A DNA stretch of 64,000 nt from Nitrosospira sp. (GTDB taxonomy: Bacteria > Pseudomonadota > Gammaproteobacteria > Burkholderiales > Nitrosomonadaceae). The stretch lies in contig DASZUL010000047.1 in NCBI GenBank assembly GCA_035547595.1, positions 27,160 through 91,159 on the forward strand, given 5' to 3'. Below are positions 11,735 to 57,341 of this stretch, piece by piece. A program made the translations under genes and the position numbers. Below the pieces are notes generated by a model. That model was not told the DNA's origin. It did not search any database and saw nothing but the letters and a program-made list of their open reading frames with translations. Numbering within the stretch: position 1 is the stretch's first letter; every line of letters starts with the position of its first letter.

Positions 11735-12208
11735 TCACCGCTCCCCCACGACGCGGCCGTTACGAGGATCGCTTATCATCGCTGGAACCGCAAGAGACTG
11801 GACTCTGGCGTGCGTCGGTCGCCCGGCAGAGGGATCGTTACGATGCCGGAGTTCTGCGGTGGTCTGCCGATGAAGAGCAGCCCTGCTCAAACTTGTCTTT
11901 GCAGCACGTTCGTACTTGATCATCAAAGCCCAGGTGTGGGATTGCCTGTCCTGTGCTTGCCGGCCATAGAAATAGCTTTTTTCCTGGTAATGCTCGAGCA
12001 GCTTCTGCTGTTCTTCAGCATTTGTCTGCATTTCCCTTGCGAGATTTTCATAGTGTTCCATCAGGGCAAGATGATCGCTTAGGGTCCTGGCGTTTTTTGA
12101 AGCCTGCTGCAACGAAGGATTATCTACGGCTTCGTAACGGCTCATAGGCGCACAAGAGGCAAGCAGGCAAGGGATAATCATGAATAACAAAAATCTTCCC
12201 GGTCTCAT
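11735..12208 (-). CDS. Helical lipoprotein of unknown family, paralog A (of 46831..47181 and 56985..57341)
   Basis: Lipobox LLASC; shares NAxTxxDHxALxxHYExxAxxM and YG[RK]xxxDxxxH motifs with the other two copies. Confidence 0.8.
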   Translation of the reverse strand: MRPGRFLLFMIIPCLLASCAPMSRYEAVDNPSLQQASKNARTLSDHLALMEHYENLAREMQTNAEEQQKLLEHYQEKSYFYGRQAQDRQSHTWALMIKYERAAKTSLSRAALHRQTTAELRHRNDPSAGRPTHARVQSLAVPAMISDPRNGRVVGER

Positions 12209-12281
12209 CCTGCACCTTCGCGATTCTGTCTGTATCCGTTATAGCCCTTTAAAGAATATGCAAAGCACCACGTATGGCTGC

Positions 12282-12310
12282 AGTTTACCGGCCATGGGGT
12301 ACTTTGTCAA
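12282..12310 (-). promoter_or_regulatory. Sigma70 promoter of lipoprotein A with a CsoR-like motif in the spacer
   Basis: Minus strand reads TTGACA-aagtaccccatggccgg (17 nt)-TAAACT. Confidence 0.6.
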
Positions 12311-12907
12311 CTTGTTTATGTCTAAAGTTATGTAATAACCGCAGGGACTCTCCCGACGCCAATTGCTCGAGCCATGTGGCTGACCCAGTGCCATAGATGC
12401 TAAAGACATTTCATCCTGCTGAAAAATAACGCGAATACAGATCCAAAATGAAATAGAGAGCAAATGGAGAGCGGGGGCGAATTTTTTGAAGAGGCATTTA
12501 CCCGGTATGTATTGCCGAAAAATACGGCTGTAACTCATGCGCGGCACATCGGCTCTTCCGGCAACAGGGGCGCAGGAGGCATTGAAGCATCAGGATATTT
12601 CAATGAGACGATGGAGATAGGTGGGCAATCCGATCAGCCCGGAAAGTGAAGGCAAGCAAAACTACAGGCCACTCGGCCAGGAATCCGGGCACTGCGGGGA
12701 AAACCGCCAGCTTGATGGCGAAGGGGAGACCCATGGCGGGAAGGACGGGAGGCGCACTGTCCGAACCGGGACTACCTCGGCATCCCTCCCGCCTCCTTTA
12801 TTTCTATACTGTATCCGATGGAACAAACGGATCCATTGCTGCATGGGTTGCAACATGCTTTTGCTCCCGCGGATTTGCCGCGGAGAGCGGTAACGTCGGG
12901 AAATATG

Positions 12908-13489
12908 CTATCGGCGGCGGGAACCCAGCCAGTTCTGCATCCGTTTCGACCTTATGACCTTGTACGCGAACAGGCTTAGCAGCATCATGGCGATAAGCGG
13001 CCCAATCGCGGAACGAAAAATGTTCGCGTAGTTGATCATGTGCACTCTCAAGGGGTACTGGTAACGCACGGGCGGTACCGCGTCCCCCGTGATGAAAACC
13101 GTATAGAGGCCCTTGTCCAGGATCGTTTCGCCTTTGATCACGCCATCCGGGTGGTAGCTGGGCCGGACATATGTCACGGTCTCATCTTCGGCCTCGTTGG
13201 TACCCCGTACGATGCGCATTCCCACGGGGATGTCCCGTAGCGCCTGATCGACCAGATCCACGACGAGAAACGTTTCGCCTTCCTTCGGAATTTCCGTACA
13301 GTATTGGTCGCCCGGCTCGTGTTGCGGCTGATAGGCGCTCAAATGCACCATGCTGTTGTCGCCCATCCGCCTCATGCAGGTGTCTTCTTCCATGGTTACT
13401 TTTCCATGCGCTCCGGCTGCGCCGCAGTAAAGCGTCGCCGCCAATCCCAGCACCGATATGCCGGTTTGCATCACTCGCTTTATCACCAT
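12908..13489 (-). CDS. Orphan AmoD/AmoE/PmoD-family periplasmic copper protein with C-terminal membrane anchor
   Basis: Signal peptide then HGKVTMEEDTCMRRMGDNSMVHLSAYQPQ...YCTEIPKEGETFLVVDLVD; Cx8MxH motif; C-terminal TM helix followed by a basic tail. Confidence 0.85.
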   Translation of the reverse strand: MVIKRVMQTGISVLGLAATLYCGAAGAHGKVTMEEDTCMRRMGDNSMVHLSAYQPQHEPGDQYCTEIPKEGETFLVVDLVDQALRDIPVGMRIVRGTNEAEDETVTYVRPSYHPDGVIKGETILDKGLYTVFITGDAVPPVRYQYPLRVHMINYANIFRSAIGPLIAMMLLSLFAYKVIRSKRMQNWLGSRRR

Positions 13490-13923
13490 TTATATCCTCT
13501 TTTTCACTATTGTCCGCCATGTTGTTTGCCAGGAACGGCAGACCCATACCCGCTCACTTGATACCTTGCCGGGGTTGGTAAACCGGTTCCAGCCGATTCC
13601 ATCCAGCGGGCTAGATAAAAACGCCTATTAATCACGTCAGCGCTTGCACAATGAAAGTATATTAAATCGATCACCAATGCAATCAAAATTTATAAATGGA
13701 TGAGCTGCGTTGCCTCCCTTGTCCAACCGCCGTGGTGGCATTCCCGTCTGCTTTTCCGGCAAAGCGCCACAGCCCGTCAATGCAGCCTCCCTCATGCGGG
13801 GAGAAACCGGGGATTCGCGGAGCCCTGGGCATGGATCTGCCACCATGGGCCACCATGGCTGATCGAAGCGCCCGATGGACATGATGCGAAGCAGGTTCCG
13901 GTTTTGCTTGCCAATGCCGCAGC

Positions 13924-14736
13924 CTAATGCGCCAGCAACCCTTCCTCGAGATAGGCGATATCGAACGGCATGATGATGCGCGGATCGGGTGAGATCAGCG
14001 ACCCATCCTTGCCGGCATAGTCGAGCCGGTTCAGCATATCCTTGATGACATTGAGCCGGGTGAGCGGCTTGTCGTCAGCGCGTACCACCGTCCAGGGGGT
14101 GATGAGATTATGGGTGCGCACCAGCATCTCGTTTCGCGCCCGCGTATATTGCTTCCATTTTTTAAGCGCTACCTCATCCAGCCCGCTGATTTTCCACTGC
14201 GTAAGCGGATTTTTTTTCCGGTCCTTCAGACGCTCCGCCTGCTCCAGTTTGCTGATGTCGAGATAGTATTTCAGGAGCTTGATGCCGGACCGGATCAGCA
14301 TATGTTCGAACTCCGGCACGGAGGTCATGAACTCCTCGTATTCATCGTCCGTGCAAAATCCCATTACCCGTTCCACCCCCGCCCGGTTGTACCAGCTTCG
14401 ATTGAACAGCACGAGTTCCTGTGACGCCGGCAAATGGGGAACGTAGCGCTGGAAATACCACGAGTTGCTGTCGCGGTCGGAAGGCTTGCCGAGTGCGACC
14501 ACCCGCGTTTCACGGGGACTGAGGTGCTCGATGATGCGCTTGATGGTTCCATCCTTTCCCGCGGCATCCCGGCCTTCGAAAATGACCAGTATCTTGTCGT
14601 TGCATTGAATAAAATGGCGCTGCAGCTTGACAAGCTCGATCTGAAGGCGGTAAAGCGTCTCTTCGTATTCCTTTTTCGAGATTTTTGGCATTTCCGTTTC
14701 GATGCCCATCCCGTTCTTCTTTGTCTTTTTACTCAT
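13924..14736 (-). CDS. ppk2: Polyphosphate kinase 2, copy 1
   Basis: FEGRDAAGKDG, WYFQRY and LFNRSWYNRAGVERVMGFC motifs; start placed at ATG 14736 (track extends to 14790). Confidence 0.95.
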   Translation of the reverse strand: MSKKTKKNGMGIETEMPKISKKEYEETLYRLQIELVKLQRHFIQCNDKILVIFEGRDAAGKDGTIKRIIEHLSPRETRVVALGKPSDRDSNSWYFQRYVPHLPASQELVLFNRSWYNRAGVERVMGFCTDDEYEEFMTSVPEFEHMLIRSGIKLLKYYLDISKLEQAERLKDRKKNPLTQWKISGLDEVALKKWKQYTRARNEMLVRTHNLITPWTVVRADDKPLTRLNVIKDMLNRLDYAGKDGSLISPDPRIIMPFDIAYLEEGLLAH

Positions 14737-14887
14737 GGCATGTCGATTCCTGTGTTGTTTGCCGCTTCGGTCTTCATTACGGGGATGCATATTAATCGCG
14801 GGAGGTCCATAGCCGGATCATACACTTCTTCCGCTTGTGCCCCGCGAAACGGGGATTGGGCAACGGCGGAAACCGCCTGAGTAATGC

Positions 14888-14989
14888 TCACGGAAGCGTT
14901 TTTTTGCCCAACATGCGCTCCAACTGGCGAATCCGCTCTTTCAATTCTCGCACCTCGACCGAAAATGGCACCGCATCGTCGCCATGTGC
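14888..14989 (-). mobile_element. Remnant of an IS3-family (IS2-like) transposase OrfA, fused in frame as the RND copy 1 tail
   Basis: Tail AHGDDAVPFSVEVRELKERIRQLERMLGKKTL resembles the IS2-type OrfA C-terminus as recalled (GEQVVPASE...IKELQRLLGKKTM); absent from RND copy 2. Confidence 0.6.
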
Positions 14990-22017: not shown

Positions 22018-22018
22018 A

Positions 22019-25288: not shown

Positions 25289-25329
25289 ACTATGTTTCCT
25301 CTTTTACCCTCGGTAAAAAAACCCATTTC

Positions 25330-36302: not shown

Positions 36303-36347
36303 ATCATATACCCCACTAGGGTATATGTCAATACCTTATTGAGGTAT
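36303..36347 (-). promoter_or_regulatory. Sigma70 promoter with tandem CsoR/RcnR-type operators
   Basis: Minus strand TTGACA-17 nt-TATGAT; inverted repeat ATATACCC-CACTA-GGGTATAT (36306-36326) fills the spacer; second repeat ATACC-TTATTGA-GGTAT at 36331-36347. Confidence 0.75.
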
Positions 36348-36873
36348 ATTAGAATACTGGAAATAGTTTTATATTCCCGACTCCTGTTATATGCCCTGCA
36401 GCATTTTGTATGGCCTCCTTACAACCGGAACGGCGCATGAATTTATTGTATATATAATTGATTTTAGGATAATTTATCGCTTAAAGAAGCTATTGATGAT
36501 GGTGCCGGCAAACTCGCCTCGCCCTTCACAAGCATCGGCCGAACATTCATAAGCTCGGTTGGTCTTGTTTCACATGGCGTAAGGCAAATACTTATACAGG
36601 GTATGTATATGAGAGGGTGAGGGCATCTATGGGACCAGAATCCATACAGAGGGGACGATGGAGAGGGTGGGGAATATCCGACCCCGGTGTCGGTGCCCTG
36701 CTGTCGGCTGGCCTGGAGGCCAGGGATTTATGGTTGGCCGTTTACCGCGACGCGGCTCAAGGACGCATACGCGCGGCCTCATGATTGGCGGAACACCGGG
36801 GGGGGGTTGCCTGGATCAAGTCACGCTGTTCATGCCTGTAACCAGTTGCGGAAAATGCCTGGTTTTCCAGCGT

Positions 36874-39358: not shown

Positions 39359-39642
39359 GGCATCTCGCGAATATGAAATGGATCGGACATTGGGAACAGC
39401 ACCGAAAAGGCGCAATCCGGTTCCTTTTTGTTGCCGCCTTTTCTTTTTTAAAAACTCGGTACATAATAGGGTTATTTACGGATTTGATAAAGCATTTGTG
39501 CGCATTTGTACAGCATGATTCCCTCAGTCCATAAAAGTGTCGCGATGGAAATCCGGGTACCATCCGGACATGGGTTCATTCCTTGTCTTTTTTATCGGCG
39601 ATCAGGTTGCTCATCATGGGCAAAACGCCCGTACTGACCGAT

Positions 39643-40056
39643 ATGAAGTCACGAAGCCGCCTGTTTGTCGTTGTCCTGGTCATGCTGGGACTGCCGCTGC
39701 AGGGTGCGTTGGCCGCCATCATGCCGCTTTGCGCCCAGGTTTCCCAATCTCCCCAAACCCATCCGGCGCTCAACCCGTTCCCCGGCTTCGAGGCGCAAAG
39801 CCACTCGTCCAGCCTGGCTTCGCCCTGTTCCCAGCATGATATGGACGATACGGACGAATCCGCGCCTGAAACCGTCGACCAGCCGGACGAAATGGCGCTG
39901 ACATGCGATGGATCCGTCTGCCATATAAGCGGCAGCAGTTTGCCTGCTTTTACTCCTCAAATAAACTCGACCGGCGGGTTTTCCTATCTTGCCGCGTCAA
40001 ATGTCCGCTTCACCTCGCTTATCCTGAACCAGCCGCAACGCCCCCCTCTCTCCTGA
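39643..40056 (+). CDS. Small exported Cys/His protein (DUF2946/CopL-like) leading the cus operon
   Basis: LPLQGALAAIMPLC N-terminus, CDGSVCH, and terminal PQRPP typical of these leader proteins. Confidence 0.65.
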   Translation: MKSRSRLFVVVLVMLGLPLQGALAAIMPLCAQVSQSPQTHPALNPFPGFEAQSHSSSLASPCSQHDMDDTDESAPETVDQPDEMALTCDGSVCHISGSSLPAFTPQINSTGGFSYLAASNVRFTSLILNQPQRPPLS

Positions 40057-40335: not shown

Positions 40336-41808
40336 ATGATTACCTTGCTCTCATTTTCCACGGGTTTGCCGCTGGCCATGGGCCAGCGATTTAAGCAGGC
40401 GCAAGATTGCTTGCCTTCATGTTTGCCGGCGCCGTTCCGGCATGCAGTCCGGTCTTGTGCCGGAGCTCTCGCGCTATTGGCGAGCGCCGTTTTTCAGGCG
40501 CACGCTGCAGATGTGCTTCCGAACTGGGGAAGCGCAACAGCGCACCGGTATGCCAGCGCCATGCATAAGGAGGAAGCACCTGCCGGAGCGTTCGCAAAAG
40601 CCGCGGACGACCACGTTACTCCGTTGCAGACGTTGATTGCGGAAGCGCTGGAGAAAAATCCGGAAATCCAGGCCGCGCGTCACGAGCGCGAGGCGGCCAG
40701 CCAGAGAGTGGCGCCAGCCGGGGCACTGGATGACCCGGTGCTGGAAGCAGGAATTATCAATGCGCCCCTGGCTTCGTCAACCTTCAATCGGGAAGACATG
40801 ACGATGAAAATGATCGGCTTGTCCCAGCGCTTGCCCTTTCCGGGCAAGCGCGGCCTACGCAGGGAAGTCGCCGCCCGCGATGCGGAGAGCATCGGCCACG
40901 GCTATCAGGAAACCGTGAATCGCGTGGTACGCGACATCAAGGCCGCCTATTTCGATCTGGGGCTGATACTTGAAAGAACCCGCATCGTCGAGAAAAACAA
41001 GCTGATCCTGGAAGACCTTCTCCACATTGCCGAGCGCCACTATGGGGTAGGCATAGGCAGCCTGGCCGACGCGCTGAAGGCGCAAACGCAGGTATCCAGG
41101 ATGGCGGACGAACTGCTCAGGCTGGCGCGGGAAAAGCCGGTCATGGAAGCAGAGCTCATCCGCTCGCTCAACCGTAGCGCGACAGCGGCGGCGCCAATAC
41201 CGAAACCGCCGCAACTGGGGGAAGAGGTCCTGAGCCTGGAGTCCCTGCGCGAAGCAGCTCTTGCGCAGCGCCCGCAATTGCTGGCGCTGCAAAGCATCGT
41301 CGCCCGCAACGACAAGGCGCTGGAACTGACCCGGAAAAATTACTATCCCGACCTCGACGTGCGTTTGTCGTATGGCCAGCGCGACAACATGCTGGATGGC
41401 AGCAGGCGCCCCGACATGGTGACCCTGACCGTGGCGATGAACCTCCCCATATGGCGCGAGAACAAGCTCGAACCGCGGGTGATGGAGACATTGGCGCTGC
41501 GCGACCAGGCGCTGGACCTGTACCAGGCGCAGCGCAACGAAGTGGACGCAAGGTTGCGGCAGCAGGTGGAGATGGCTGAACAAAACCTGAGATCGGCGCG
41601 GCTTTACCAGACCGCCATCCTGCCGCAGGCGCGGCTCACGGTCGAGGCTTCGTTGAGCGCCTATCGCGTCAATCGCGTCGATTTCCTGACATTGCTCGAT
41701 AGCCAGATGACCGTGTTCAACTATGAAATCGGTCTTGCCACGGCCATTGCCGGCTACAACAAGGCGCTTGCGGAAATCGATTTGCTCGCCGGCAAGCCGC
41801 CCCGGTAA
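40336..41808 (+). CDS. TolC-family outer-membrane heavy-metal efflux protein (CusC-like)
   Basis: LSQRLPFPGKRGLR, YYPDLDV, MNLPIW and YRVNRVDFLTLLDSQ motifs; start uncertain. Confidence 0.9.
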   Translation: MITLLSFSTGLPLAMGQRFKQAQDCLPSCLPAPFRHAVRSCAGALALLASAVFQAHAADVLPNWGSATAHRYASAMHKEEAPAGAFAKAADDHVTPLQTLIAEALEKNPEIQAARHEREAASQRVAPAGALDDPVLEAGIINAPLASSTFNREDMTMKMIGLSQRLPFPGKRGLRREVAARDAESIGHGYQETVNRVVRDIKAAYFDLGLILERTRIVEKNKLILEDLLHIAERHYGVGIGSLADALKAQTQVSRMADELLRLAREKPVMEAELIRSLNRSATAAAPIPKPPQLGEEVLSLESLREAALAQRPQLLALQSIVARNDKALELTRKNYYPDLDVRLSYGQRDNMLDGSRRPDMVTLTVAMNLPIWRENKLEPRVMETLALRDQALDLYQAQRNEVDARLRQQVEMAEQNLRSARLYQTAILPQARLTVEASLSAYRVNRVDFLTLLDSQMTVFNYEIGLATAIAGYNKALAEIDLLAGKPPR

Positions 41809-41828: not shown

Positions 41829-43445
41829 ATGAAACCGATGAACCCGATTGCCAGATTGATCATTGTTACCGCCCTGATAGCGGGCGCGCTCGCCGCCGGA
41901 TACTGGTGGGGCAGCGCCAGGCCGGCGGCGCCAGCGGCGAATCCGCCGGAAGCCGTGACGCCAGCAGGTAAAGGCAGGATCCTCTATTACCGTAATCCGA
42001 TGGGGCATCGCGACACCTCGCCGGTGCCGAAGAAAGATTCGATGGGCATGGACTACATCCCCGTCCATGAAGGCGAAGAATCCTCGTCCGGCACTTCGGT
42101 AGTGAAGATCAGTAACGAAAAAATACAAAAGCTCGGGGTAAAAACGGAGGCAGTCGCGCTGCGTGAGCTCACCCGCACGGTGCGGGCCATGGCAACCGTG
42201 CAGCCGGACGAGCGCCGGCTGTACACCGTGGCGCCCAAGTTCGAGGGCTGGATCCATAAGCTCTACGTAAACGCCACTGGGCAGGCGGTAAGAAAAGGCG
42301 AGGCGTTGATGGATGTATACAGTCCAGAGCTGATCACGGCGCAGCACGAATATCTGATCGGAAGAAAAGGGATGCAGCATGCGATTGCGGAAGGCAATCC
42401 GGAGGGGGGAGGGGCAATGCAGCGGCTGGCCGAGAGCACCTTGAGCAGGCTGCGCAATTGGGATATCTCGGAGGCGGACCTGCGGGCGCTGCAGCAGGAA
42501 GGCCAGGTCAAGCATTATGTCACCTTGCGTTCCGGGACCGGTGGCATCGTACTGGAGAAACCCGCTATCGAAGGCAGGCGCTTCATGCCCGGCGAGATGC
42601 TGTACCAGATTGCCGACCTGTCCAGCGTGTGGATGCTGGCCGATGTGTTCGAGCAGGATCTCGGCCTGGTTGGTCGGGGCCAGAACGCCACTATCAGGAT
42701 GGTTGCCTATCCGGACAAGGTGTTCAGTGGGACGGTGACATTCATCTATCCCACGGTGGCGCCGGAAACGCGGACCGCAAAGGTGCGGATTGAGCTCCCC
42801 AACAAGGAAGGCTTGCTCAAGCCGGACATGTACGGAAGGGTTGAGCTGGCTTCGCTTCAGGGCAAACATAAGGTGCTGGCGGTGCCCGACTCGGCAGTGC
42901 TCGATACAGGAACGCGGCGCCTGGCGCTGGTGGAACGGGGCGAGGGCCGGTACGAGCCGCGCGAGGTCACGCTCGGCATGCACGGCGATGGCTACGTTGA
43001 GGTATTGGGCGGGCTTGCGGCGGGAGAAGCGGTGGTGGTCAGCGCAAACTTCCTGATCGATGCCGAGAGCAACCTCAAGGCGGCGCTGGACGGATTCACT
43101 CGCGATGCTTCCAGTCCGAGACCTGACGGGACTGCGCACGATGAACACCGCGCATCCGGGCAAACCGTGGTTCAAGGCCATCACGGCGAGGGAAGCATCG
43201 AGGCGATGGATTGGGCGCGCTCGACGGTAACGATCAGCCACGGTCCGATTGCCAGTCTCGGTTGGCCGCCGATGACCATGGATTTCCGTGTCACGGAACC
43301 GGCCTTGCTGCGCGCCTTGAAGCCCGGGCAGAAGGTCGGTTTCGACATGGTCGAGGAACCGGCCGGCGAGTATGTCGTCGTCCGCATCCGGCCGGCTAAC
43401 GGCAGCCTTCCCGCCAGTTCCGCCGGCGGCAGGGGAGAACGCTGA
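41829..43445 (+). CDS. cusB: CusB-type adaptor with N-terminal Met-rich metal-binding domain and C-terminal fused CusF domain
   Basis: YYRNPMG...KKDSMGMDYIPV, GWIHKLY, NFLIDAESNL; tail HGPIASLGWPPMTMDF. Confidence 0.92.
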   Translation: MKPMNPIARLIIVTALIAGALAAGYWWGSARPAAPAANPPEAVTPAGKGRILYYRNPMGHRDTSPVPKKDSMGMDYIPVHEGEESSSGTSVVKISNEKIQKLGVKTEAVALRELTRTVRAMATVQPDERRLYTVAPKFEGWIHKLYVNATGQAVRKGEALMDVYSPELITAQHEYLIGRKGMQHAIAEGNPEGGGAMQRLAESTLSRLRNWDISEADLRALQQEGQVKHYVTLRSGTGGIVLEKPAIEGRRFMPGEMLYQIADLSSVWMLADVFEQDLGLVGRGQNATIRMVAYPDKVFSGTVTFIYPTVAPETRTAKVRIELPNKEGLLKPDMYGRVELASLQGKHKVLAVPDSAVLDTGTRRLALVERGEGRYEPREVTLGMHGDGYVEVLGGLAAGEAVVVSANFLIDAESNLKAALDGFTRDASSPRPDGTAHDEHRASGQTVVQGHHGEGSIEAMDWARSTVTISHGPIASLGWPPMTMDFRVTEPALLRALKPGQKVGFDMVEEPAGEYVVVRIRPANGSLPASSAGGRGER

Positions 43446-46400
43446 TGCTCGGCCGGATCATCGAATGGTCTGCCCGCAATATATTCCTGGTGCTGCTGGG
43501 CACGGCCTTCATTGTCGGCCTCGGCATCTACTCCACGGTCCGCACGCCACTGGACGCGATTCCCGATCTCTCGGATGCGCAGGTCATCATCTACACAGAA
43601 TACCCGGGGCAGGCGCCGCAGGTCGTCGAAGACCAGGTCACCTATCCCTTGAGCACGGCCATGCTGGCGGTGCCGAAATCCAGGGTGGTGCGCGGCCTTT
43701 CGGTATTCGGCGCCTCCTTCATCTACATCATCTTCGAGGATGACACCGATATCTACTGGGCCCGAAGCCGCGTGCTCGAATACCTTAATTTCGCGGCTGG
43801 GCGCATGCCGCGAGGCGTCACGCCGACCCTGGGGCCGGACGCGACGGGTGTTGGCTGGGTGTATCAGTATGTGGTCTTGGCCGCCCGGCATACGCTTGCG
43901 GAATTGCGCACCATCCAGGACTGGTTCGTGCGCTATCAGCTCACCAAGGCGCACGGCGTGGCCGAAGTGGCGAGCGTGGGCGGATTCGTCCAGACCTACC
44001 AGGTCACGGTCGAGCCGCGCAAGTTGCAGGCTTATGGCATTCCCCTCGGCCGGATCGCCGCCGTGATCCGCGCCAGCAACCGCGACGTGGGAGGACGCGT
44101 GCTCGAAATGGCCGAGACGGAATATGTGGTGCGCGGGCGCGGTTACCTGCACGGCATAGCCGACATCGAAAATCTCGTTCTCAAGGCGGAAAAAGGCACG
44201 CCGGTGCTGATCCGCGATGTGGCCCGGGTCGAATTGGCGCCGGATGAACGGCGCGGGATCGCGGAGTTGAACGGCGAGGGTGAGGTGGTCTCCGGCATTG
44301 CCGTAGCGCGCTACGGACAGAATGCGCTGACCGTCATCGACAACGTCAAAAGAAGGATTGAAGAAATATCCAGCGGTTTGCCGGAGGGAGTGTGGCTGCA
44401 GACCGTCTATGACCGTTCCGACCTGATCTATCGGGCAATCGATAACCTGAAACGGGTGCTGGTCGAAGAAAGCCTCATCGTAGCCGCCGTCTGCATGGTG
44501 TTTCTCATGCATGCGAGGAGCGCGCTGGTGGCTATCGTCATGCTGCCTATCGGCGTGCTCATCGCGATGATCGCCATGCACATGCTGGGGCTCAATTCAA
44601 ACATCATGAGCCTGGGCGGCATCGCCATTGCCATCGGCGCCATGGTGGATGCGGCCATCGTGATGATCGAGAATACCCACAAGCACCTGGAGCGGGCGCC
44701 GCCGGATGCGCCCCGCCTGCAAATCGTGATCGATGCCTGCCGCGAGGTGGGTCCCGCCCTGTTTTTCAGCCTCCTCATTATTACCGTTTCATTCCTGCCG
44801 GTATTCACGCTGGAAGCGCAGGAGGGACGAATGTTCGCACCGCTGGCTTATACCAAGACGTTCGCGATGGCGGGCGCGGCGCTGCTGTCCATCACGCTGG
44901 TGCCAGTGCTGATGTTCCTGTTTATCCGCGGCAGGATCCTGCCCGAGCAAAGAAATCCGGTCAACCGCTTTCTGATATGGATTTACCGTCCTGTCATCGC
45001 CTGGGTGATGCGATGGAAGAAGCTCACCATAGCGCTTGCTGCGATTACGCTCGCTGTTTCGATATTCCCGGCAACAAAGCTGGGCAGCGAGTTCATGCCG
45101 GTGCTGAACGAGGGAAGCCTGCTGTATATGCCCATCACCTTGCCGGCATTGTCGGTCACCAAATCCGCCGAAATGTTGCAGACCCAGGACAAGATCATCA
45201 AGATGTTTCCCGAGGTCGAGTCGGTGTTCGGAAAGGCGGGGCGCGCCAATACCGCGACCGACCCTGCGCCGCTGGAGATGGCCGAAACGGTGATCAACCT
45301 CAAGCCCGAAAGCGAATGGCGGCCAGGCATGACTGTCGATAAGCTGATAGCCGATCTGGACCAGGCGCTGCAAATACCCGGAGTCAGCAATGCGTGGACC
45401 ATGCCGATCAAGAACAGGATAGACATGCTTGCCACAGGCATCCGCACGCCGATCGGCATCAAGGTGTTCGGCAAGGACCTAGAGGAAATCGAGGAACTCG
45501 CCAGGCATATCGAGGCTGTCGTAAAAACGGTGCCGGGCACCACCAGCGCCTACGCGGAACGCCTTACCAGTGGCTACTATCTCGACATCGAACCCGACCG
45601 GCTGGCGCTGGCTCGCTACGGCTTGGCAGTGGGCGACCTCTTGGAAGCGGTCTCGCTGGCGCTGGGCGGCGAGACGCTGACGACCACCGTGGAAGGCCGC
45701 GAGCGCTTCGCCGTCACCATGCGCTATCCGCGCGAGCTGCGCCAGGATCCGATGGCGATCGCCAACCAGGTCCTGATACCGGTCATGAACGACGCCATGA
45801 TCCCGCTAGGGCAGGTGGCCAGCGTTAAAACGGTCAGGGCACCTCCCGCCATACGCACCGAGAATGCGCTGCTGTCGGCGTACATCTTTGTCGATATCCG
45901 CAACCGCGACATGGGAGGCTATGTCGCCGATGCCCAAAAAGCGGTGACGGAGCAGGTGAAATTCCCGCCCGGATACTATGCTACGTGGAGCGGCCAGTTC
46001 GAATACATGGAGCGGGCCAAGCAGAAGCTGAAGGTGATCGTGCCCCTCACCCTGGCGATCATTTTCCTGCTTCTCTATCTCAATTTCAGGCGATTTACCG
46101 AAACCTTCATCGTCATGCTTTCGGTGCCGTTTTCGCTGGTGGGTGGAATCTGGCTGCTCTGGCTGCTTGGCTACAACCTCAGCGTCGCGGTGGTCGTGGG
46201 CTTCATTGCGCTCGCCGGCGTCGCCGCCGAGACAGGCGTCGTCATGCTGATCTATCTCGACCACGCCTGGGAAGCCATGGAGAAAAAGCGCGCGGCCGCG
46301 GGCGGCCAGCCAACGGCGGCCGATCTGTATGCCGCGGTAATGGATGGAGCCGTCGAGCGCGTACGCCCGAAAATGATGACCGTGGTGGCAATTATGGCAG

Positions 46401-46570
46401 GGCTGCTGCCGATCATGTGGGGCAGCGGCACGGGCTCCGAAGTAATGCGGCGCATCGCAGCGCCCATGGTGGGCGGCATGGTGTCGTCCACGATACTGAC
46501 ATTGATCGTGATTCCCGCCATCTATGCCCTGATCAAGGAGTGGGGCCTGCGCGATCGGAAGGGAAACTGA
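43445..46570 (+). CDS. cusA: Cu(I)/Ag(I) RND efflux permease
   Basis: DAIPDLSDAQVI, GAMVDAAIV, three-Met site (LYMP, LEMAET, AWTMPI) and RVRPKMMT motifs. Confidence 0.96.
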   Translation: MLGRIIEWSARNIFLVLLGTAFIVGLGIYSTVRTPLDAIPDLSDAQVIIYTEYPGQAPQVVEDQVTYPLSTAMLAVPKSRVVRGLSVFGASFIYIIFEDDTDIYWARSRVLEYLNFAAGRMPRGVTPTLGPDATGVGWVYQYVVLAARHTLAELRTIQDWFVRYQLTKAHGVAEVASVGGFVQTYQVTVEPRKLQAYGIPLGRIAAVIRASNRDVGGRVLEMAETEYVVRGRGYLHGIADIENLVLKAEKGTPVLIRDVARVELAPDERRGIAELNGEGEVVSGIAVARYGQNALTVIDNVKRRIEEISSGLPEGVWLQTVYDRSDLIYRAIDNLKRVLVEESLIVAAVCMVFLMHARSALVAIVMLPIGVLIAMIAMHMLGLNSNIMSLGGIAIAIGAMVDAAIVMIENTHKHLERAPPDAPRLQIVIDACREVGPALFFSLLIITVSFLPVFTLEAQEGRMFAPLAYTKTFAMAGAALLSITLVPVLMFLFIRGRILPEQRNPVNRFLIWIYRPVIAWVMRWKKLTIALAAITLAVSIFPATKLGSEFMPVLNEGSLLYMPITLPALSVTKSAEMLQTQDKIIKMFPEVESVFGKAGRANTATDPAPLEMAETVINLKPESEWRPGMTVDKLIADLDQALQIPGVSNAWTMPIKNRIDMLATGIRTPIGIKVFGKDLEEIEELARHIEAVVKTVPGTTSAYAERLTSGYYLDIEPDRLALARYGLAVGDLLEAVSLALGGETLTTTVEGRERFAVTMRYPRELRQDPMAIANQVLIPVMNDAMIPLGQVASVKTVRAPPAIRTENALLSAYIFVDIRNRDMGGYVADAQKAVTEQVKFPPGYYATWSGQFEYMERAKQKLKVIVPLTLAIIFLLLYLNFRRFTETFIVMLSVPFSLVGGIWLLWLLGYNLSVAVVVGFIALAGVAAETGVVMLIYLDHAWEAMEKKRAAAGGQPTAADLYAAVMDGAVERVRPKMMTVVAIMAGLLPIMWGSGTGSEVMRRIAAPMVGGMVSSTILTLIVIPAIYALIKEWGLRDRKGN

Positions 46571-46830: not shown

Positions 46831-47181
46831 ATGAAAACAAAGAGTTTTACTACGATTTTGGTCGCCCTTGGCTTATTGACCTCGTGCGCGCAAATGAATC
46901 CACATCCGATGGACATGACAAGCGCGGTCCGGAATGCTAAAACCAGTGGAGACCACAATGCATTGGCCAAACACTATGAAGACGTGGCCAGGGATATGGA
47001 TGCGAAGGTGCAGGAACATAAAAAATTACTCTACGAATACGAAACACACCCTTACTACGGAAAGCGCGCGCAAGATCTCAAGGCGCATTGCGAGGTCCTA
47101 ATCAGGAGTTATAAGCGGGCAGCGGAGGCAAACATGAGCATGGCGAAAATCCACCACCAAATGGCAGAGGAAACTAAATAG
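46831..47181 (+). CDS. Helical lipoprotein of unknown family, paralog B
   Basis: AGGAG RBS, lipobox LLTSC, HPMDM, DHNALAKHYE, YYGKRAQDLKAHC and KIHHQM; the track fused it to a spurious upstream frame. Confidence 0.88.
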   Translation: MKTKSFTTILVALGLLTSCAQMNPHPMDMTSAVRNAKTSGDHNALAKHYEDVARDMDAKVQEHKKLLYEYETHPYYGKRAQDLKAHCEVLIRSYKRAAEANMSMAKIHHQMAEETK

Positions 47182-47298: not shown

Positions 47299-47625
47299 AT
47301 GAAATTCACTCCGATTCTTGTCTTAATTCTCGCCTTTTCGGCTTCTGGCGTCGCCACTGCGCAATCCGGCGCTGCGCGTGACAAGGCCGCCACGAGCTCA
47401 GAGGCGACCAGGCACCGGACCACTGCAGTAGTCAAAGCCGTGGATATCGCCAATGGAAAAGTCAAGCTTGCGCATGAACCAGTCAAAAGCCTGAACTGGC
47501 CTGCGATGACCATGAATTTCTTCGTCAAGGATCCCGCGCTGTTCGACCAGCTCTCGATCGGCAAAAAAGTGGAAGTCGAGTTCATCCAGGAAGACTCTGC
47601 GTCCGTCATAACAGCGGTAAAGTAA
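47299..47625 (+). CDS. cusF: Periplasmic copper chaperone
   Basis: Signal peptide; HEPVKSLNWPAMTMNF (His, Trp, Met, Met site). Confidence 0.93.
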   Translation: MKFTPILVLILAFSASGVATAQSGAARDKAATSSEATRHRTTAVVKAVDIANGKVKLAHEPVKSLNWPAMTMNFFVKDPALFDQLSIGKKVEVEFIQEDSASVITAVK

Positions 47626-47721: not shown

Positions 47722-49947
47722 ATGGAAGCAGAAACGAAAGCAGATCGTCATCCTTCCACCCTGCCGCAGGTTAGCCATCCCTCCGGTGAAGATGGGGCAA
47801 CATTCGTCCAAACCGGCGTGAAACCCGGTCCTCAATGGACCTGCCCCATGCATCCCGAAGTCTTGCGCGGCGCGCCAGGAGATTGCCCTATCTGTGGCAT
47901 GGCGCTGGTGCCTGTTGCAGGTACTGGCGCCACCGGAACTGAAGACAGCGAAGCCGAACTGCGTGATCTTGCACGCCGGTTGCGCGTCGGGGTCGGGTTG
48001 TCAATCCCGCTGGTCGCGATCGCGATGTTGCCCATGATCGGCGTCCATGAGCCGCTCGGGCTCAAGGCGCATGCACGCGGCTGGGTCGAGTTCCTGTTCG
48101 GCACGCCCGCCGTGTTATGGGCCGGCTGGCCGATCTTGCGTAAATTTTGGTTTTCGCTCATGCATCGCGCACCCAATATGTACACCCTTATCGGCCTGGG
48201 GGTAGGATGCGCCTATCTGTTCAGCCTTGCCGCCGTGTTTATGCCCGGCTGGTTCCCGCTGGAATTCCGCACACATGACGGAGCCGTAGGCACCTATTTC
48301 GAGGCGGCGGCGGTTATCGTGACGCTGGTCATGCTGGGCGACTACCTTCAAACACGCGCAATGGGACAGACCGGCCGGGCAATCCAGCAATTACTGAAGC
48401 TCGCGCCCAACCTGGCATGGCGTCTGCGCAACGATGGGACCGAGGAACAGGCGCCGCTTGAGGCGATCGCAGTGGGCGATCGGCTGCGCGTGAAACCGGG
48501 TGAGAAAATCCCGGTTGACGGAACGGTGCTCGAGGGGTCGAGCCGGGTGGATGAATCCATGATAACGGGCGAGCCGGTTCCGGTAGTCAAGTCTGCCAAG
48601 GATAAGGTGACTGGCGCGACCGTCAACGGCAACGGTGCCCTGGTCATTCGGGCCGAACGTGTAGGCGTCGACACGCTGCTGGCGCGCATCGTTCATATGG
48701 TCGGCGAGGCGCAACGCACGCGCGCGCCTATTCAGCGGCTTGCGGATGTCATTGCCGCCTATTTCGTCCAGGTTGTTATCGCCATCGCGATCATCACAGC
48801 TCTTGCATGGTGGTTTCTCGGACCGGAGCCGAAATTTGCCTATGCCTTCGTCAATGCCATTGCCGTTCTCATCATTGCCTGCCCGTGCGCTGTAGGTCTC
48901 GCCACACCCATATCGATGACTGTCGCCATGGGGCAGGGCGCTCGTGCCGGTATCCTGTTTCGCAACGCGGACGCTATCGAGCGCATGCGCGATATCGATA
49001 CCGTAGTGGTGGACAAGACTGGCACACTGACGCTGGGGCGCCCCGAGTTGACAGATTTCGCCGTAGACGGCATACCGCTGCAGGAAGCCCTTGCTCTGCT
49101 TGCAGGAGTGGAACAATTTTCCGAGCACCCTATCGCGCATGCCATCGTCGAGGGCGCCAGGTCGCGCAGCGCGGCGCCCTTGGCAGCGGAAGCTTTTGCA
49201 GCCGTCAACGGCATGGGAGTGCAGGGTCAAATCAACCGCAAGCGAGTGCTGGTGGGCAGCCGTGATTTTCTCCGGCAGGAGAGTATCGACACGCAGCGCT
49301 GGGAAGCGCGCGCGGAAACCTGGCGCAGTGAAGCCAAGACTGTGGTGTTTTTCGCAATCGACGGCAGTGCCACCGGTATCGCGGCAGTGGCTGATCCGAT
49401 CAAGGAAAATACGGCGGAAGCCATTGCCTCGCTACGGAACCAGGGCGTTCACATTGTCATGCTTACCGGGGACGCACAGCGCACCGCCGAGGTCGTTGCC
49501 GGGAAACTGGGCATCGATGAGGTGCTGGCCGAAGTCCTGCCGGAGGATAAAGCCGGCCACGTCAAGCGCCTCCAGGCCGAAGGACGCAAAATCGGGATGG
49601 CGGGTGATGGCATCAACGACGCTCCTGCACTGGCACAGGCGGATGTGGGGATCGCGATGGGAACGGGAACCGATGTAGCGATGGAAAGCGCGGGCGTCAC
49701 CCTGGTCAAGGGCGACCTGCGCGGCATTGCGCGGGCCATCATTCTGTCCCGCGCCACCATGCGCAACATCCGCCAGAATCTCATCTTCGCATTTGGCTAT
49801 AATGCGCTCGGCATTCCCCTTGCCGCAGGGTTGTTATATCCCCCTTTCGGGCTGTTGCTTTCACCGATGTTCGCTGGCGCGGCCATGGCGATGAGTTCGG
49901 TGTCCGTCGTTACCAATGCCTTGCGGCTCAACCGCGTTAGGCTATGA
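47722..49947 (+). CDS. copA: P1B-1 Cu(I)-translocating ATPase
   Basis: WTCPMHP...CPICGM, TGEP, CPC, DKTGT, HP, GDGIND, YN and MAMSS motifs. Confidence 0.95.
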
Positions 49948-52014: not shown

Positions 52015-52024
52015 GTTTGCCTCC

Positions 52025-52249: not shown

Positions 52250-52268
52250 GATTAACGTCCCCGAGTCT

Positions 52269-52484: not shown

Positions 52485-52507
52485 GATAGAGCCTCTTTGC
52501 GATAATG

Positions 52508-52526
52508 AATGATAATGATTCGTAAT
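52508..52526. promoter_or_regulatory. Fur box upstream of hemP-bfd-bfr
   Basis: AATGATAATGATTCGTAAT, embedded in GATAAT hexamer repeats. Confidence 0.75.
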
Positions 52527-52638
52527 TATATTTGAGTTGGAGCGAAATGCAAGAATAAATCGCGGTGGCGTTGCCATCTCGTACACATGCCGGCTGCAGC
52601 AGCAAGTATTCATCCCGTGAACCGGTGCGCACCCGGCG

Positions 52639-53004: not shown

Positions 53005-53103
53005 GATTTCCTCCAAATTGAACCAGTTAAAGCAGGCCCCATGTCCTATGAAACCTCCCCATACTTTTTTCTTCCACCGGAATTAACCCACGTGCGGGGG
53101 AGT

Positions 53104-53922: not shown

Positions 53923-54232
53923 TCTCCATCACGCAGCTTTCCACTACGAAACGAACAGGAAAAAGAAACGAAATCCGGCGCATAGGGCGCTCTTCTTTTT
54001 TTAACTGGTGTCACAAACCTTACTCCCATGACAAGTCAGATAATGATTGGCTGGCTTGACCGGGGATGGGATCGGCTGGCTGAAATGCCGCTGATGCAAG
54101 AGAACTCGGCGGCGATGGACATTCACACCGGATTAATTGCGGGGAAGAAAAAACTTTCCGCACCCCACAGGATAAGTAACATCCGGTGTTTGTGAATTTT
54201 TTGTTATGCTTTTGTCAATTTATTGTTAATGT

Positions 54233-54277
54233 TAATAAGAATGATTCTTATTATACACTATTCCCTATCTTGGACAA
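54233..54277 (-). promoter_or_regulatory. Perfect Fur-type palindrome overlapping a sigma70 promoter
   Basis: TAATAAGAAT-G-ATTCTTATTA (54233-54253); minus strand TTGTCC-16 nt-TATAAT. Confidence 0.8.
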
Positions 54278-54366
54278 GGATATTTTATGGTTGACCTTGG
54301 AACCGAGGGCGGGGAAATGACGGGGAAATAGCTTGCAAGGGCGCCGGCCGGAATGACTGACCGAAC

Positions 54367-55599
54367 TTATCTGTCGCTGGAAGAAGCGGCCGGAGTGATG
54401 GGAATCAGCCGGTAGCCTTCCTTTTTACTGTTCCACGATATGAAAATACCCTGCGGGCCGGTCAGCAGAAATGGAAAATCACTGCTGGCCCGGCTTTCCG
54501 CAACCTGAACGGGAGTGGACCAGCTTTCGCCTCCATCGCCGGATCGCATGAGGAGGAGATGGCTTCTCTCGGCATCGAATTCCATCCATGTGAGGAAGAC
54601 GTTTCTGCCGCTGGCCAAGACGTCGGGGTGGCTTGGCATTCTTCCGGGTGTGCCAAAGGGCTGGGGTTGCGAAAAGCGTTGGCTGCCATCGGATGAAAAG
54701 GCATAGAACAAGCCTTGCCTGGCGCTTCCCTGGGTGAACCATGCGATATGGTAGTGGTTATCGCCGCCTATCGACAATGCAGGTCCATGCTCGGGGCAGC
54801 CCTTGAGTTCCCATTGGTCATGCGTGGCGCGCGACGAAAACGGCCTTCCATCCGATCCAAGCTGGACCAGCCCTAAATCCCGCATGTCGCCCGGATAAAC
54901 AAATCGGGCGAGCACGACAGGATGTCCTGCGCTATCGAAAGACACGGCAATACGGCAACATTCGCAAACGGTATCGGCAAGCTTCCGGTCAACGGAACGA
55001 TTGCCACCTCCGGGGCCAAGCTCCCGGAAATAGATGGCATTGCCTGGCTGCCTCCAGTCGGTGCGGTCGCGTTCATCAAGCCAGAATGCATAAGGTTGGC
55101 CGGAAGGCCCGATCGCGAGGCGGCCTTCGAAGGAGTTTGCCTCCGAAGACATGCCGCTCAGGGGCATGGGAGTCGAAAAACTGCGGCCACCGTCGGTGGA
55201 GATGCTGAAAACCTGTTCTATCGGCTGCGTACCTTCCGCGGCAAAGGTAACGTAGATTTTGCCTGTGCCATCCACCACGATGCCAGGACGGTTCTCGCCG
55301 CTCGCCTTGATGCGCAGTGCATCATTGTTCACGCGCGCGGGCGCGCTGAACGTTTTGCCGAGATCCGTCGAGTAGTCGACATATACGTATTGTTTCTCAG
55401 GCACGATCCGCCAGAGCCGGCCATCCGGACCAAAAAAGGCGCCCACAAACAAACTCCCGCCTTGCGGATAGTGCGAGTAGTCGTTCCGGCCTGCTTCCAG
55501 GTGGTCGTGATCTCCATAACTGACGGGACTGAACGCAAGTGTGCCGAGCAGCAGGAGGCAAATCGGAAGAAATCCAAATCTGTTATTTCCGCTGTGCAT
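54367..55599 (-). CDS. Exported BNR/Asp-box (sialidase-like) beta-propeller protein
   Basis: Asp boxes STDLGKTF, STDGGRSF, SSDGSQRF and SGDGGESW; CECCR and CPEHGP motifs. Confidence 0.85.
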   Translation of the reverse strand: MHSGNNRFGFLPICLLLLGTLAFSPVSYGDHDHLEAGRNDYSHYPQGGSLFVGAFFGPDGRLWRIVPEKQYVYVDYSTDLGKTFSAPARVNNDALRIKASGENRPGIVVDGTGKIYVTFAAEGTQPIEQVFSISTDGGRSFSTPMPLSGMSSEANSFEGRLAIGPSGQPYAFWLDERDRTDWRQPGNAIYFRELGPGGGNRSVDRKLADTVCECCRIAVSFDSAGHPVVLARFVYPGDMRDLGLVQLGSDGRPFSSRATHDQWELKGCPEHGPALSIGGDNHYHIAWFTQGSARQGLFYAFSSDGSQRFSQPQPFGTPGRMPSHPDVLASGRNVFLTWMEFDAERSHLLLMRSGDGGESWSTPVQVAESRASSDFPFLLTGPQGIFISWNSKKEGYRLIPITPAASSSDR

Positions 55600-55676
55600 G
55601 ATAGCTACACCCTGGGAAAAAGTGCCATACGGAGATTGGCGGGATACTCCGCGATCATTCTACTGCACGCCATTCG

Positions 55677-56681
55677 CTAGTATGCGAAAACCAGACGGTA
55701 GGTGATGCGGTAATCAGGCGGGCTTTGGTAACCATTGCGGTCCTTGACTATCGGCGTGCCTATCGACAATGCGGTATTCCAGTGCTTGCCTCCGGCATAG
55801 CGTATGCCGGGAGAAATATAAACGGTATTGCTACCCGAATTGGGATCAACCAGACCGGCAGTTTTCTGGCGATCCTGCCACATGCCGTTGAGCTCCAGTA
55901 CGGCTGTCCATGGCGCATTGTTGCTGCCAACAAAAAGATTGTTTCTGGCCACACCTACGAAAGCGTAGGAAAGTGCGAGGTTATAGTCAAAAGTATCGCC
56001 CAGGTCGGTTTGTTGCGCTCCGCGGGTCGCTACCGTGTAAAGCACGCTGCTATCCAGCGAAAACTTTCCCATCGCGCGGGTGAAGGAAAAGCCGACCGCC
56101 GGGTTCCAGGACCCGCTGCTGGGCTGATGGTGCGTTTCGAAGCGCTCGCCCTGGCTAGTCTGGACGTGGGTCGCGCCGGATGGGGTCTTGAGCGCAACCA
56201 CCAGGGATAAATGATTCAGCTGATCCGGGGTATGAAAAAAACGGTACTGGCCGAACAGGGAGACACCGCTAAAACCTCCCGGATTGCCCAGTTTATCCAC
56301 GGCATCCCCATCTTCATTGGGCGAACGTACGCCAAAACGCTGAACATAAGGAAGCCTGATGCCCAGGGTCAGGTTGTCGGTCACCCCGTAAGCCGCAAAC
56401 ACGGATGGGATCAAAAGGGATTTCACGCTGTGAACGTCCCCATGGGCATCATCAATCGCGTTATTTTTCAAATTGAGAAGCAGGGAATCCGAAGCGCTGT
56501 TGAAACTCGTAAATTGCGTAATGAGGCCTCCGGCCCACATTCCGGCAGGAAGCGTTATGCCAGTCTGGGTAATGATCGGGGAGGCGGTACCGATGCCGAA
56601 GCCCAGGGAGCCGTGATCCGCCTCCGCACTGGTGCAAAGAGCAAAAGCGGAGATTGCAAGCAGGGTTTTCGACTGATTCAT
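55677..56681 (-). CDS. Putative outer-membrane beta-barrel transporter (SphA/MetA-pathway-like)
   Basis: Signal peptide, mature N-terminus DHG; YGVTDNLTLGIRLPY, LKTPSG and ISPGIRY motifs; terminal aromatic residue. Confidence 0.75.
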   Translation of the reverse strand: MNQSKTLLAISAFALCTSAEADHGSLGFGIGTASPIITQTGITLPAGMWAGGLITQFTSFNSASDSLLLNLKNNAIDDAHGDVHSVKSLLIPSVFAAYGVTDNLTLGIRLPYVQRFGVRSPNEDGDAVDKLGNPGGFSGVSLFGQYRFFHTPDQLNHLSLVVALKTPSGATHVQTSQGERFETHHQPSSGSWNPAVGFSFTRAMGKFSLDSSVLYTVATRGAQQTDLGDTFDYNLALSYAFVGVARNNLFVGSNNAPWTAVLELNGMWQDRQKTAGLVDPNSGSNTVYISPGIRYAGGKHWNTALSIGTPIVKDRNGYQSPPDYRITYRLVFAY

Positions 56682-56984
56682 CCGTCACGCTCCGAAAATT
56701 TTCTTTTTTTCAAACTATAATTCAGTGTAAAAAACCACACTCGATATATAGTTATTTGCCTAGTGTAATATAATTTATGACGTTTATATGCGACAAATTG
56801 CCGCACCTGCAGGAATCGGCACGATGAGTTGGACCGAGAGTTCCAGTTGTAAACATCCCTGCAAAACCGTGCCGCGACGGCGGTGGGCAATGGGACCGGC
56901 ATCGGAGTGCAGGTTATTTTCAGTGCTGCGGCATTGTCGAAACCGGTCATGAAGTTATCTTGTCAGCTGTCCTTGGAGATTGAT

Positions 56985-57341
56985 ATGAAATCGAAAAGCC
57001 TTATCGCAACCTTGTTCGCTCTCGGCGTGCTTGTTTCCTGCGCGCATACCGATCCTCATTCCATGGACATGAGCAGTGCGATCCGTAACGCCAAGACCCG
57101 GGCTGACCACAACGCCCTGGCCCAGTACTACGAGAATGCGGCGAAGAGAATGCAGGCGAGAGCGCAGGCGGAGAGGAACATGATGAATGAATACACGCGG
57201 CACGGCTACTACTATGGACGCAGCACGGAAGACCTGCAGGAACATACCGAAGCCCTGGTGCGTGTGTACGAGCAAGGCGCGGAGGCAAACAGGACTATGG
57301 CGAAGTTTCATCATCGGCTCGCGGAGGATGCGAGCGAGTAG
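56985..57341 (+). CDS. Helical lipoprotein of unknown family, paralog C
   Basis: GGAG RBS, lipobox LVSC, HSMDM, DHNALAQYYE, YYGRSTEDLQEH and KFHHRL. Confidence 0.88.
   Translation: MKSKSLIATLFALGVLVSCAHTDPHSMDMSSAIRNAKTRADHNALAQYYENAAKRMQARAQAERNMMNEYTRHGYYYGRSTEDLQEHTEALVRVYEQGAEANRTMAKFHHRLAEDASE

Follow-up and report, generated by a model that had tools for sequence, protein, structure and literature searches.

The window analysed here is a stretch of 64,000 nucleotides from Nitrosospira sp. (assembly GCA_035547595.1, contig DASZUL010000047.1, positions 27,160 to 91,159 of the forward strand), and its subject is three small lipoprotein genes, here called A, B and C, together with the copper-export genes that surround one of them. 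Lipoprotein A (11735..12208, minus strand) is 157 amino acids long, B (46831..47181, plus strand) 116 and C (56985..57341, plus strand) 118. A first-pass annotation of the window had taken the three for homologous lipoproteins, and open reading frames (ORFs) and BLASTP bear this out, with 37% identity between A and B (E 2e-25) and 52% between B and C (E 6e-46). A lipoprotein was defined as a protein with an N-terminal signal peptide ending in [LVI][ASTVI][GAS]-Cys; each of the three has a basic n-region, a hydrophobic h-region and a lipobox (LASC, LTSC and LVSC in A, B and C, at residues 16-19). All the shared motifs listed in that annotation are seen in the alignment, namely NA[KR]T..DH.AL..[HY]YE..A..M, YG[RK]...D...H and a C-terminal His, and the HxMDM that it placed behind the lipidated Cys is visible in the translations of B and C. 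This H25-x-M27-D28-M29 starts six residues past the lipid Cys and is encoded at 46903..46917 in B (H25-P-M27-D-M29) and at 57057..57071 in C (H25-S-M27-D-M29), both on the plus strand; in B it is a candidate Cu(I) ligand motif in a flexible N-terminal segment. The notable residues of B are the lipid Cys19, H25/M27/M29, D41-H42, H63, H86-C87 and H108-H109..M111. C possesses D41-H42 and H108-H109, with E63 and T87 replacing H63 and C87. A has neither the Pro-His-Pro-Met-Asp-Met (PHPMDM) motif nor His63 or Cys87.

B lies within a set of copper-export genes, all on the plus strand. Upstream are a cusC-like outer-membrane factor of the TolC family (40336..41808; PF02321), a cusB-like adaptor whose C-terminus carries a fused CusF domain (41829..43445; PF16576, PF11604; NF007303) and cusA, a heavy-metal efflux permease of the resistance-nodulation-division type in the CusA/CzcA family (43445..46570; TIGR00914 at 1232 bits, the cut-off being 701). 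Downstream are a stand-alone cusF (47299..47625; PF11604, E 3.7e-25) and a copper P1B-type ATPase with a heavy-metal-binding domain (HMBD) at its N-terminus (47722..49947; TIGR01511 at 585 bits, the cut-off being 397; PF19335 on an identical gene). B therefore sits between cusA and cusF, with the copper P1B-ATPase next.

In the maximum-likelihood tree B and C group with sequences from methanotrophs, Nitrotoga and other lineages, and A groups with 12 other paralogs from its own genome and with distant members that lack the motif. C-type sequences form a subclade with 99% SH-aLRT support, nested within B-type sequences of ammonia oxidisers. Members of the PHPMDM clade, to which B and C belong as the B-type and C-type members of the window, were collected by scanning 185,579 species genomes for the core motif of the B/C type, a scan that favours close relatives of B. 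It gave 80 loci, of which 40 belong to Nitrosospira, Nitrosomonas, Nitrosovibrio or Nitrosomonadaceae and 25 to gamma-methanotrophs (Methylobacter, Methylomonas, Methylovulum, Methyloglobulus, Crenothrix and Methylococcaceae). The remaining loci comprise three from Nitrotoga, one from Methylophilus, single metagenome-assembled genomes (MAGs) of Syntrophobacteraceae and Rokubacteria, and unlabelled MAGs.

The lipobox is present in 85 of 94 members of the clade, and several residues outside it are nearly fixed. Among the 94 sequences Asp41 is found in all, Met29 and Glu50 in 93, Met27, His42, His48 and His108 in 92 each, His25 in 86 and Met111 in 75, and the C-terminus of the methanotroph proteins reads ...M-H-R-Q-M. 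At position 86, 80 sequences have His and 12 have Met. The pair H63 and C87 is complete in 69 sequences and wholly missing from 21, which leaves four exceptions. His, Met and Cys are the Cu(I) ligands of the oxidising periplasm, as in CusF, CusB, CusA and CopC. A second, diverged copy of the gene follows the P1B-ATPase in loci of the Nitrosomonas oligotropha group (L011-L016); it carries Tyr-Gln/Lys-Met-Asp-Met instead of His-Pro-Met-Asp-Met, and Ser-Met-Cys at 85-87, a natural variant in which His ligands are exchanged for Tyr and Met.

Exporter neighbours of the clade were located by tblastn with the window's own proteins as probes. At 50 of the 80 loci the lipoprotein gene has a gene for CusA, CusB, CusC, CusF or the P1B-ATPase within 1.5 kb, usually in the same orientation, and at 63 such a gene lies within a flank of about 8 kb. 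The proportion within 1.5 kb is 31 of 40 in ammonia oxidisers and 12 of 25 in methanotrophs, rising in the latter to 18 of 25 within the flank. Three gene orders are usual: the lipoprotein gene stands behind cusCBA, ahead of cusF-cusCBA, or behind the ATPase gene. One and the same Methylobacter protein of 112 amino acids is encoded behind an HMBD-P1B-ATPase in two records and behind cusCBA in another, with the downstream genes unchanged. The CusF model PF11604 had no match in any of the 12 methanotroph genomes searched that carry the gene, and the Escherichia coli and Caulobacter controls were positive. The lipoprotein gene also occurs, annotated as 'hypothetical protein', on plasmids of Methylomonas and Methylobacter, in one case within an island for metal resistance, together with genes for TolC, an adaptor, CusA/CzcA, a cation transporter and a MerR regulator and with chrBA. 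The first-pass annotation had proposed a check on the co-occurrence of a family profile with cus and amo genes: the PHPMDM clade adjoins cus or P1B-ATPase genes in most loci, and direct linkage to amoA is absent in five complete Nitrosospira genomes. The lipoproteins of a Methylophilus MAG and of Nitrotoga are almost identical (branch lengths 0.04-0.06), each with a cusA match of 74% identity about 4 kb upstream, which suggests either a recent transfer of the cus island or mis-binning of the MAG.

The fold was predicted with AlphaFold2. B (mean predicted local distance difference test score, pLDDT, 86.6) has a short helix at 29-35 and two long antiparallel helices at 39-72 and 78-115, joined by a tight Tyr-Gly turn; A (pLDDT 80.7) has helices at 43-76 and 83-124, and its tail scores about 55. 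The helical bundle expected in the first-pass annotation is not what the models contain: the predicted protomer is a two-helix hairpin, and a bundle would arise only if hairpins pair, for which a four-helix arrangement is plausible. The hairpin turns at 73-77, so that residue i of helix 2 opposes residue of about 150-i in helix 3, and both 63+87 and 42+108 sum to 150, the predicted cross-helix register. By this register and heptad spacing, and not by measured distances, His42 would face His108 and His63 would face Cys87. The same annotation expected three conserved His to converge in such a model. By register His42 and His108 do face each other, and the three cannot converge within one chain because His86 is about 22 residues from His108; moreover, only His42 is invariant among the paralogs of the genome. 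Foldseek returned only generic hairpins of the WXG100/EsxA kind (E about 0.2, query-normalised TM score about 0.6).

A, B and C are not the only paralogs, three being the number first recorded. A profile built from them finds 15 intact family copies in this Nitrosospira genome, nine with a lipobox and six with an ordinary signal peptide, and B alone among the 15 lies within 1.5 kb of exporter genes. Invariant in all 15 (B numbering) are His42, Ala53, Tyr70, Tyr76 and Ala105, and His108 is present in 13 and His86 in seven. Copies per genome range from 6 to 24 in the Nitrosospira sampled and from 0 to 12 in other Nitrosomonadaceae. The family is present in only four of about 147 other genomes of the same order and is rare outside Nitrosomonadaceae; in a profile search of 1.84 billion cluster representatives, 997 match at E <= 1e-3.

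The statement that the proteins belong to no characterised family stands. Searched against Pfam and NCBIfam, A, B, C and 42 diverse members gave chance-level matches only, for example to HAUS6_N and FadA, a profile search of PDB sequences with the family gave no useful match, and literature searches found no paper on it. PF27661, a precomputed match on a single homologue, is unlikely to define this family of hairpin lipoproteins, because only one of 120 listed homologues carries it. DUF4398 (PF14346), the UniRef label of one Nitrosomonas oligotropha homologue, was also considered and set aside: the PF14346 model (cut-off 27.9 bits) matches nothing in the whole genome at E 10, none of the 42 members at E 0.1, and not the labelled homologue itself at E 0.01. 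Outside the window, five paralogs stand in tandem on one strand of another contig of the genome (C2:70739-76443), preceded by an O-methyltransferase gene and followed by an OmpL-like beta-barrel porin of 504 amino acids (PF07642 BBP2, E 3e-82). Such tandem arrays of hairpin genes fit the idea of hairpins pairing with each other.

The surroundings of A differ from those of B. A is flanked on the minus strand by a dinG-like helicase gene (9347..11305; recognised by tblastn synteny and named from its sequence, not from a family scan), an orphan PmoD/AmoD-like gene (12908..13489; PDB 6CPD, PmoD, E 3.4e-8, with the Cys…Met-x-His region aligned) and ppk2, for polyphosphate kinase 2 (13924..14790; PF03976, E 7e-96). 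A promoter-like site on the same strand (12282..12310, TTGACA-17-TAAACT, a match to the consensus only) lies upstream of A, and a terminator-like hairpin with a T-run (11680..11699, minus strand; 8-bp stem with seven GC pairs) follows 36 nucleotides after its stop; having a terminator-like hairpin of its own suggests that A is monocistronic. The PmoD-like gene is 0.7 kb upstream of A, and the pairing of the two was tried as a functional clue and rejected. Orthologues of A (55-79% identical) adjoin ppk2 in at least ten other Nitrosospira genomes, eight of them in the direct order dinG-A-ppk2, and in none of these genomes is a PmoD-like gene found between A and ppk2. Since the conserved flanks of A are dinG and ppk2, the adjacency is specific to this genome. 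In other Nitrosospira and Nitrosovibrio genomes the PmoD-like gene is convergent with a C-type copy; in this one it has moved to a place between A and ppk2.

The 12 other paralogs that group with A have as neighbours NarL-type two-component systems (twice), the BBP2 porin, an extracytoplasmic function (ECF) sigma factor with a TPR protein, an old-yellow-enzyme gene, and genes for a peroxiredoxin, a small multidrug resistance pump, DoxX, HxlR and Usp, with no metal gene among them. The paralogs directly behind two-component systems lie on two other contigs (C19:3683-6844 and C46:1245-8133). On the latter a paralog is flanked by two near-duplicate kinase/regulator pairs, and in the kinase of the former a module of about 120 amino acids (…ERLKEITCLYEIRRGMG…) that has no Pfam name occurs three times in tandem. 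A, whose predicted hairpin ends in a disordered tail (130-157), and these 12 paralogs share the hairpin and His42/His108 without the Met/His/Cys additions; they are read here as periplasmic hairpins, possibly with a stress-related role, and not as copper proteins.

C has a looser tie to the cus genes. A related metagenome contig carries cusCBA, bfr, hemP, C and the gene for thiopurine S-methyltransferase (TPMT) one after the other, which indicates that C is part of a wider cus neighbourhood into which the intervening genes look inserted; TPMT is the conserved downstream neighbour of C in the window as well (57593..58324, minus strand; PF05724). In at least six other Nitrosospira or Nitrosovibrio loci the C-type copy directly follows the P1B-ATPase. 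The gene order first described for all three lipoproteins is correct, including the secreted protein of 334 amino acids divergent from C (55677..56681, minus strand), and this neighbour of C is no recognised metal gene, contrary to what had been supposed. The protein itself has no Pfam or NCBIfam match; its candidacy as a metal gene was dropped because its homologues are 'transporters' with PF13557 and because it is absent from all 80 related loci and from the contig with the C orthologue. Its homologues, 60-75% identical in Nitrotoga, Methylobacter, Methylovulum, Methylomicrobium and Methyloglobulus and many of them with PF13557, have the phyletic pattern of the lipoprotein clade, which hints at a mobile gene pool shared by nitrifiers and methanotrophs.

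Two further observations concern possible regulation in the window. An ORF of 157 amino acids just upstream of cusC (39583-40056, plus strand) has a weak match to CzcI (NF045614, E 9e-6, well under the cut-off) and may be a small periplasmic pump regulator. CsoR-type palindromes (ATACC-N7-GGTAT) match five times in the window against 0.68 expected, and three of them, two perfect, are clustered at 36308-36604 (plus strand), with none near the cus operon or A, B and C.

Taken together, the residues and neighbours of the B/C clade point to a lipid-anchored Cu(I)/Ag(I) carrier that works with copper exporters, a reading to which we give a probability of a little under 0.6. What the analysis establishes is paralogy, conservation and covariation of residues, gene neighbourhood, phyletic pattern and a predicted fold; metal binding, the identity of the ligands and the direction of transfer are inferred. 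The proposal of copper buffers or chaperones, made at first for all three lipoproteins, is therefore likely for B and C, on the strength of their Met/His/Cys residues and Cu(I)-exporter neighbours, and unsupported for A. The clade proteins, of about 95 amino acids, would form a hairpin behind the flexible Pro-His-Pro-Met-Asp-Met segment and have one or two binding sites for Cu(I) and probably also for Ag(I). At the first site, at the open end of the hairpin, His25, Met27 and Met29 would close over Asp41-His42 of helix 2 and over His108, with Met104 and Met111, of helix 3. The second, in B-type proteins only, would lie in the middle of the hairpin, with His63 of helix 2 opposite Cys87 and His/Met86 of helix 3. 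Tethered to a membrane, which the Ala at +2 suggests to be the outer one if the E. coli rule applies, the lipoprotein could take Cu(I) from the outlet of the P1B-ATPase or from the periplasm, and either buffer it or hand it to CusB/CusA or CusF for expulsion. In gamma-methanotrophs without CusF it may be the sole carrier of this kind.

Several observations weigh against such a carrier. The PHPMDM segment of B (residues 21-30) is predicted at low confidence, with a pLDDT of about 62, and the facing residues of both putative sites come from the register. His42 and His108 are shared by paralogs without a metal context, and the pair may be structural. Since the C-type is a single subclade, the covariation of H63 and C87 is confounded by phylogeny and is partly phylogenetic. 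With regard to gene context, 17 of the 80 loci have no exporter inside the flank, C is 7 kb from the copper ATPase in this genome, and ammonia oxidisers retain CusF too, so that the lipoprotein and CusF are not simply interchangeable. No terminator-like or promoter-like site was found on the plus strand between B and cusA or cusF, and no CsoR-type operator, the copper-regulator site looked for, was found upstream of A, B or C.

Three other explanations were weighed. The proteins might instead hold or deliver copper for ammonia monooxygenase (AMO) and particulate methane monooxygenase (pMMO), or for PmoD-type accessories, with the P1B-ATPase as a metallation pump; service to ammonia monooxygenase was also the purpose first proposed for the family. 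The clade is almost confined to lineages with these enzymes (40 ammonia-oxidiser and 25 methanotroph loci of 80), a C-type copy stands behind the P1B-ATPase and convergent with a PmoD-like gene 150-1150 bp away in at least six Nitrosospira or Nitrosovibrio genomes, and the PmoD-like gene of the window is a true PmoD homologue. Here, though, that gene adjoins A, which lacks the Met/His motif, and the adjacency is not conserved. The amoA model PF02461 has no match in this draft assembly of 81 contigs, from which the amo operons were probably lost as collapsed repeats, five complete Nitrosospira genomes each holding three identical copies; linkage was tested in these five relatives for that reason. 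Among their 73 family copies and 15 amoA genes (three in each genome) the nearest copy is 37-81 kb away, so that none lies near amoCAB and the proposed service finds no support in gene order. Furthermore, the clade occurs in Nitrotoga, in Methylophilus and in MAGs of Syntrophobacteraceae and Rokubacteria, lineages in which we know of no AMO or pMMO, the exporter cusCBA is the partner most often seen, and resistance islands on plasmids carry the gene. Supply of the monooxygenases is thus quite unlikely. As a second alternative, the hairpins might act in the manner of CpxP, Spy, ZraP or CnrX without delivering metal to a pump, either by sensing a stress (copper for B and C) and modulating a sensor kinase or anti-sigma factor, or as chaperones of damaged envelope proteins. 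The neighbours of the paralogs are in keeping with this role, two directly following NarL-type two-component systems and others lying near the ECF sigma, HxlR, Usp, DoxX, peroxiredoxin and old-yellow-enzyme genes, as is the expansion to 6-24 copies per Nitrosospira genome, which presumably resembles that of other multi-copy small stress proteins of the periplasm, for instance the CopQ group of Cupriavidus; the hairpin is of a fold that we take to be of the same general kind as the CnrX and Spy protomers. It remains unlikely for the clade, whose identified neighbours are pumps; no two-component system was seen among those with a Pfam annotation, though no search of the 80 loci aimed at regulators was made. 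The sequences show no LTXXQ motif, hmmscan gave no LTXXQ or Metal_resist match, and the soft-ligand pattern of Met, His and Cys, with His/Met alternation at 86, points to direct coordination of Cu(I).

The third alternative is a structural lipoprotein that binds no metal and travels with efflux islands, for example as a factor for pump assembly or as an outer-membrane tether, its His and Met being packing or pairing residues. Invariance across the wider family falls mostly on core residues that are small or aromatic (A53, A105, Y70, Y76), His42, His108 and Met111 occupy heptad a/d core positions as judged from sequence spacing, and the sole fold matches, at E about 0.2, are generic pairing hairpins of the WXG100 type. 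The clade-specific additions, in contrast, are of the residue types found in periplasmic Cu(I) sites and belong to a flexible segment that is not part of the core, position 86 switches only between His and Met, and the protein is kept while the type of the adjacent pump changes, which argues against an assembly role for one particular pump. A purely structural role is accordingly considered very unlikely, and the exporter-associated Cu(I)/Ag(I) carrier is preferred.

A broader form of the carrier proposal is more tentative, and we regard it as possible but doubtful. It holds that the clade proteins are all-helical Cu(I)/Ag(I) metallochaperones that replace CusF in gammaproteobacterial methanotrophs and link the output of CopA-type ATPases to CusCBA, that they spread horizontally, partly on plasmids, among nitrifiers and methanotrophs, and that the Nitrosospira family of 6-24 copies may pair combinatorially into four-helix bundles like those of WXG100 proteins, with different ligand sets. 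Ammonia oxidisers and methanotrophs need copper enzymes yet must avoid copper poisoning, and how they handle copper in the periplasm has been mapped only in part. Should the carrier reading be true, the periplasmic Cu(I) carriers would gain a new fold, the working of methanotroph Cus pumps in the absence of CusF would be explained, and a gene annotated as 'hypothetical' across many genomes and plasmids of nitrifiers and methanotrophs would receive a name and a testable role. The expansion to 15 copies also draws attention to a so far unstudied group of periplasmic hairpins in a genus important for soil nitrification.

Among known systems, the proteins of DUF4398 (PF14346) are likewise small bacterial lipoproteins of similar length, and their model does not match the family. 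The WXG100 proteins EsxA and EsxB resemble the predicted hairpin in shape and are its best structural matches (query-normalised TM score 0.58-0.61, target-normalised 0.72-0.86; root-mean-square deviation 1.4-2.5 A over about 78 residues), and their paired hairpins, which form four-helix bundles, suggest pairing here as well, an idea that the tandem array of five paralogs fits. However, the Foldseek E-values of about 0.2-1 and identities of 8-15% mark a likeness generic to helical hairpins, the turn is Y-(Y)-G-K/R without W-x-G, and the signal is of the Sec/lipobox type and not that of type VII secretion. The Csp copper storage proteins are a different group, mature A and C having no Cys and B one, and the prediction being a two-helix hairpin rather than a Cys-lined four-helix bundle.

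CnrX, ZraP, CpxP and Spy are also small periplasmic helical hairpins, some of which bind metal through His, Glu or Met, and some paralogs of the present genome lie beside two-component systems; neither LTXXQ (PF07813) nor Metal_resist (PF13801) is matched by hmmscan in A, B and C (E <= 10) or in the 42 members (E <= 0.1). CopM (DUF305, PF03713) and SilE/PcoE share with the clade the presence of His and Met in periplasmic proteins of copper or silver resistance loci and the HxxM spacing (H108..M111), but the lipoprotein is one short hairpin with a lipobox and few fixed ligand positions instead of many repeated motifs. PF03713 has no match in A, B, C or the 42 members, and comparison by eye with SilE/PcoE finds a single HxxM in a lipoprotein predicted to be folded, whereas SilE/PcoE are known to have multiple HxxM/MxxH motifs and to be disordered until metal binds. 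The closest functional analogue would be CusF, the periplasmic Cu(I)/Ag(I) chaperone of cusCFBA in E. coli, from which the lipoprotein differs in sequence, anchor and fold. CusF is a small beta-barrel with a His-Met-Met(-Trp) site, whereas the lipoprotein is predicted as an all-alpha hairpin, is lipid-anchored instead of soluble, and in its B-type adds a His/Cys site; PF11604 does not match A, B or C at E 10, as against E 3.7e-25 for the neighbouring cusF, and both proteins coexist in ammonia oxidisers, this window included. Both are nevertheless small periplasmic proteins encoded in or beside cusCBA and CopA-type ATPase genes, with His and Met as candidate ligands, and in the operons of methanotrophs whose genomes lack CusF it is the PHPMDM lipoprotein that holds the position of CusF after cusA.

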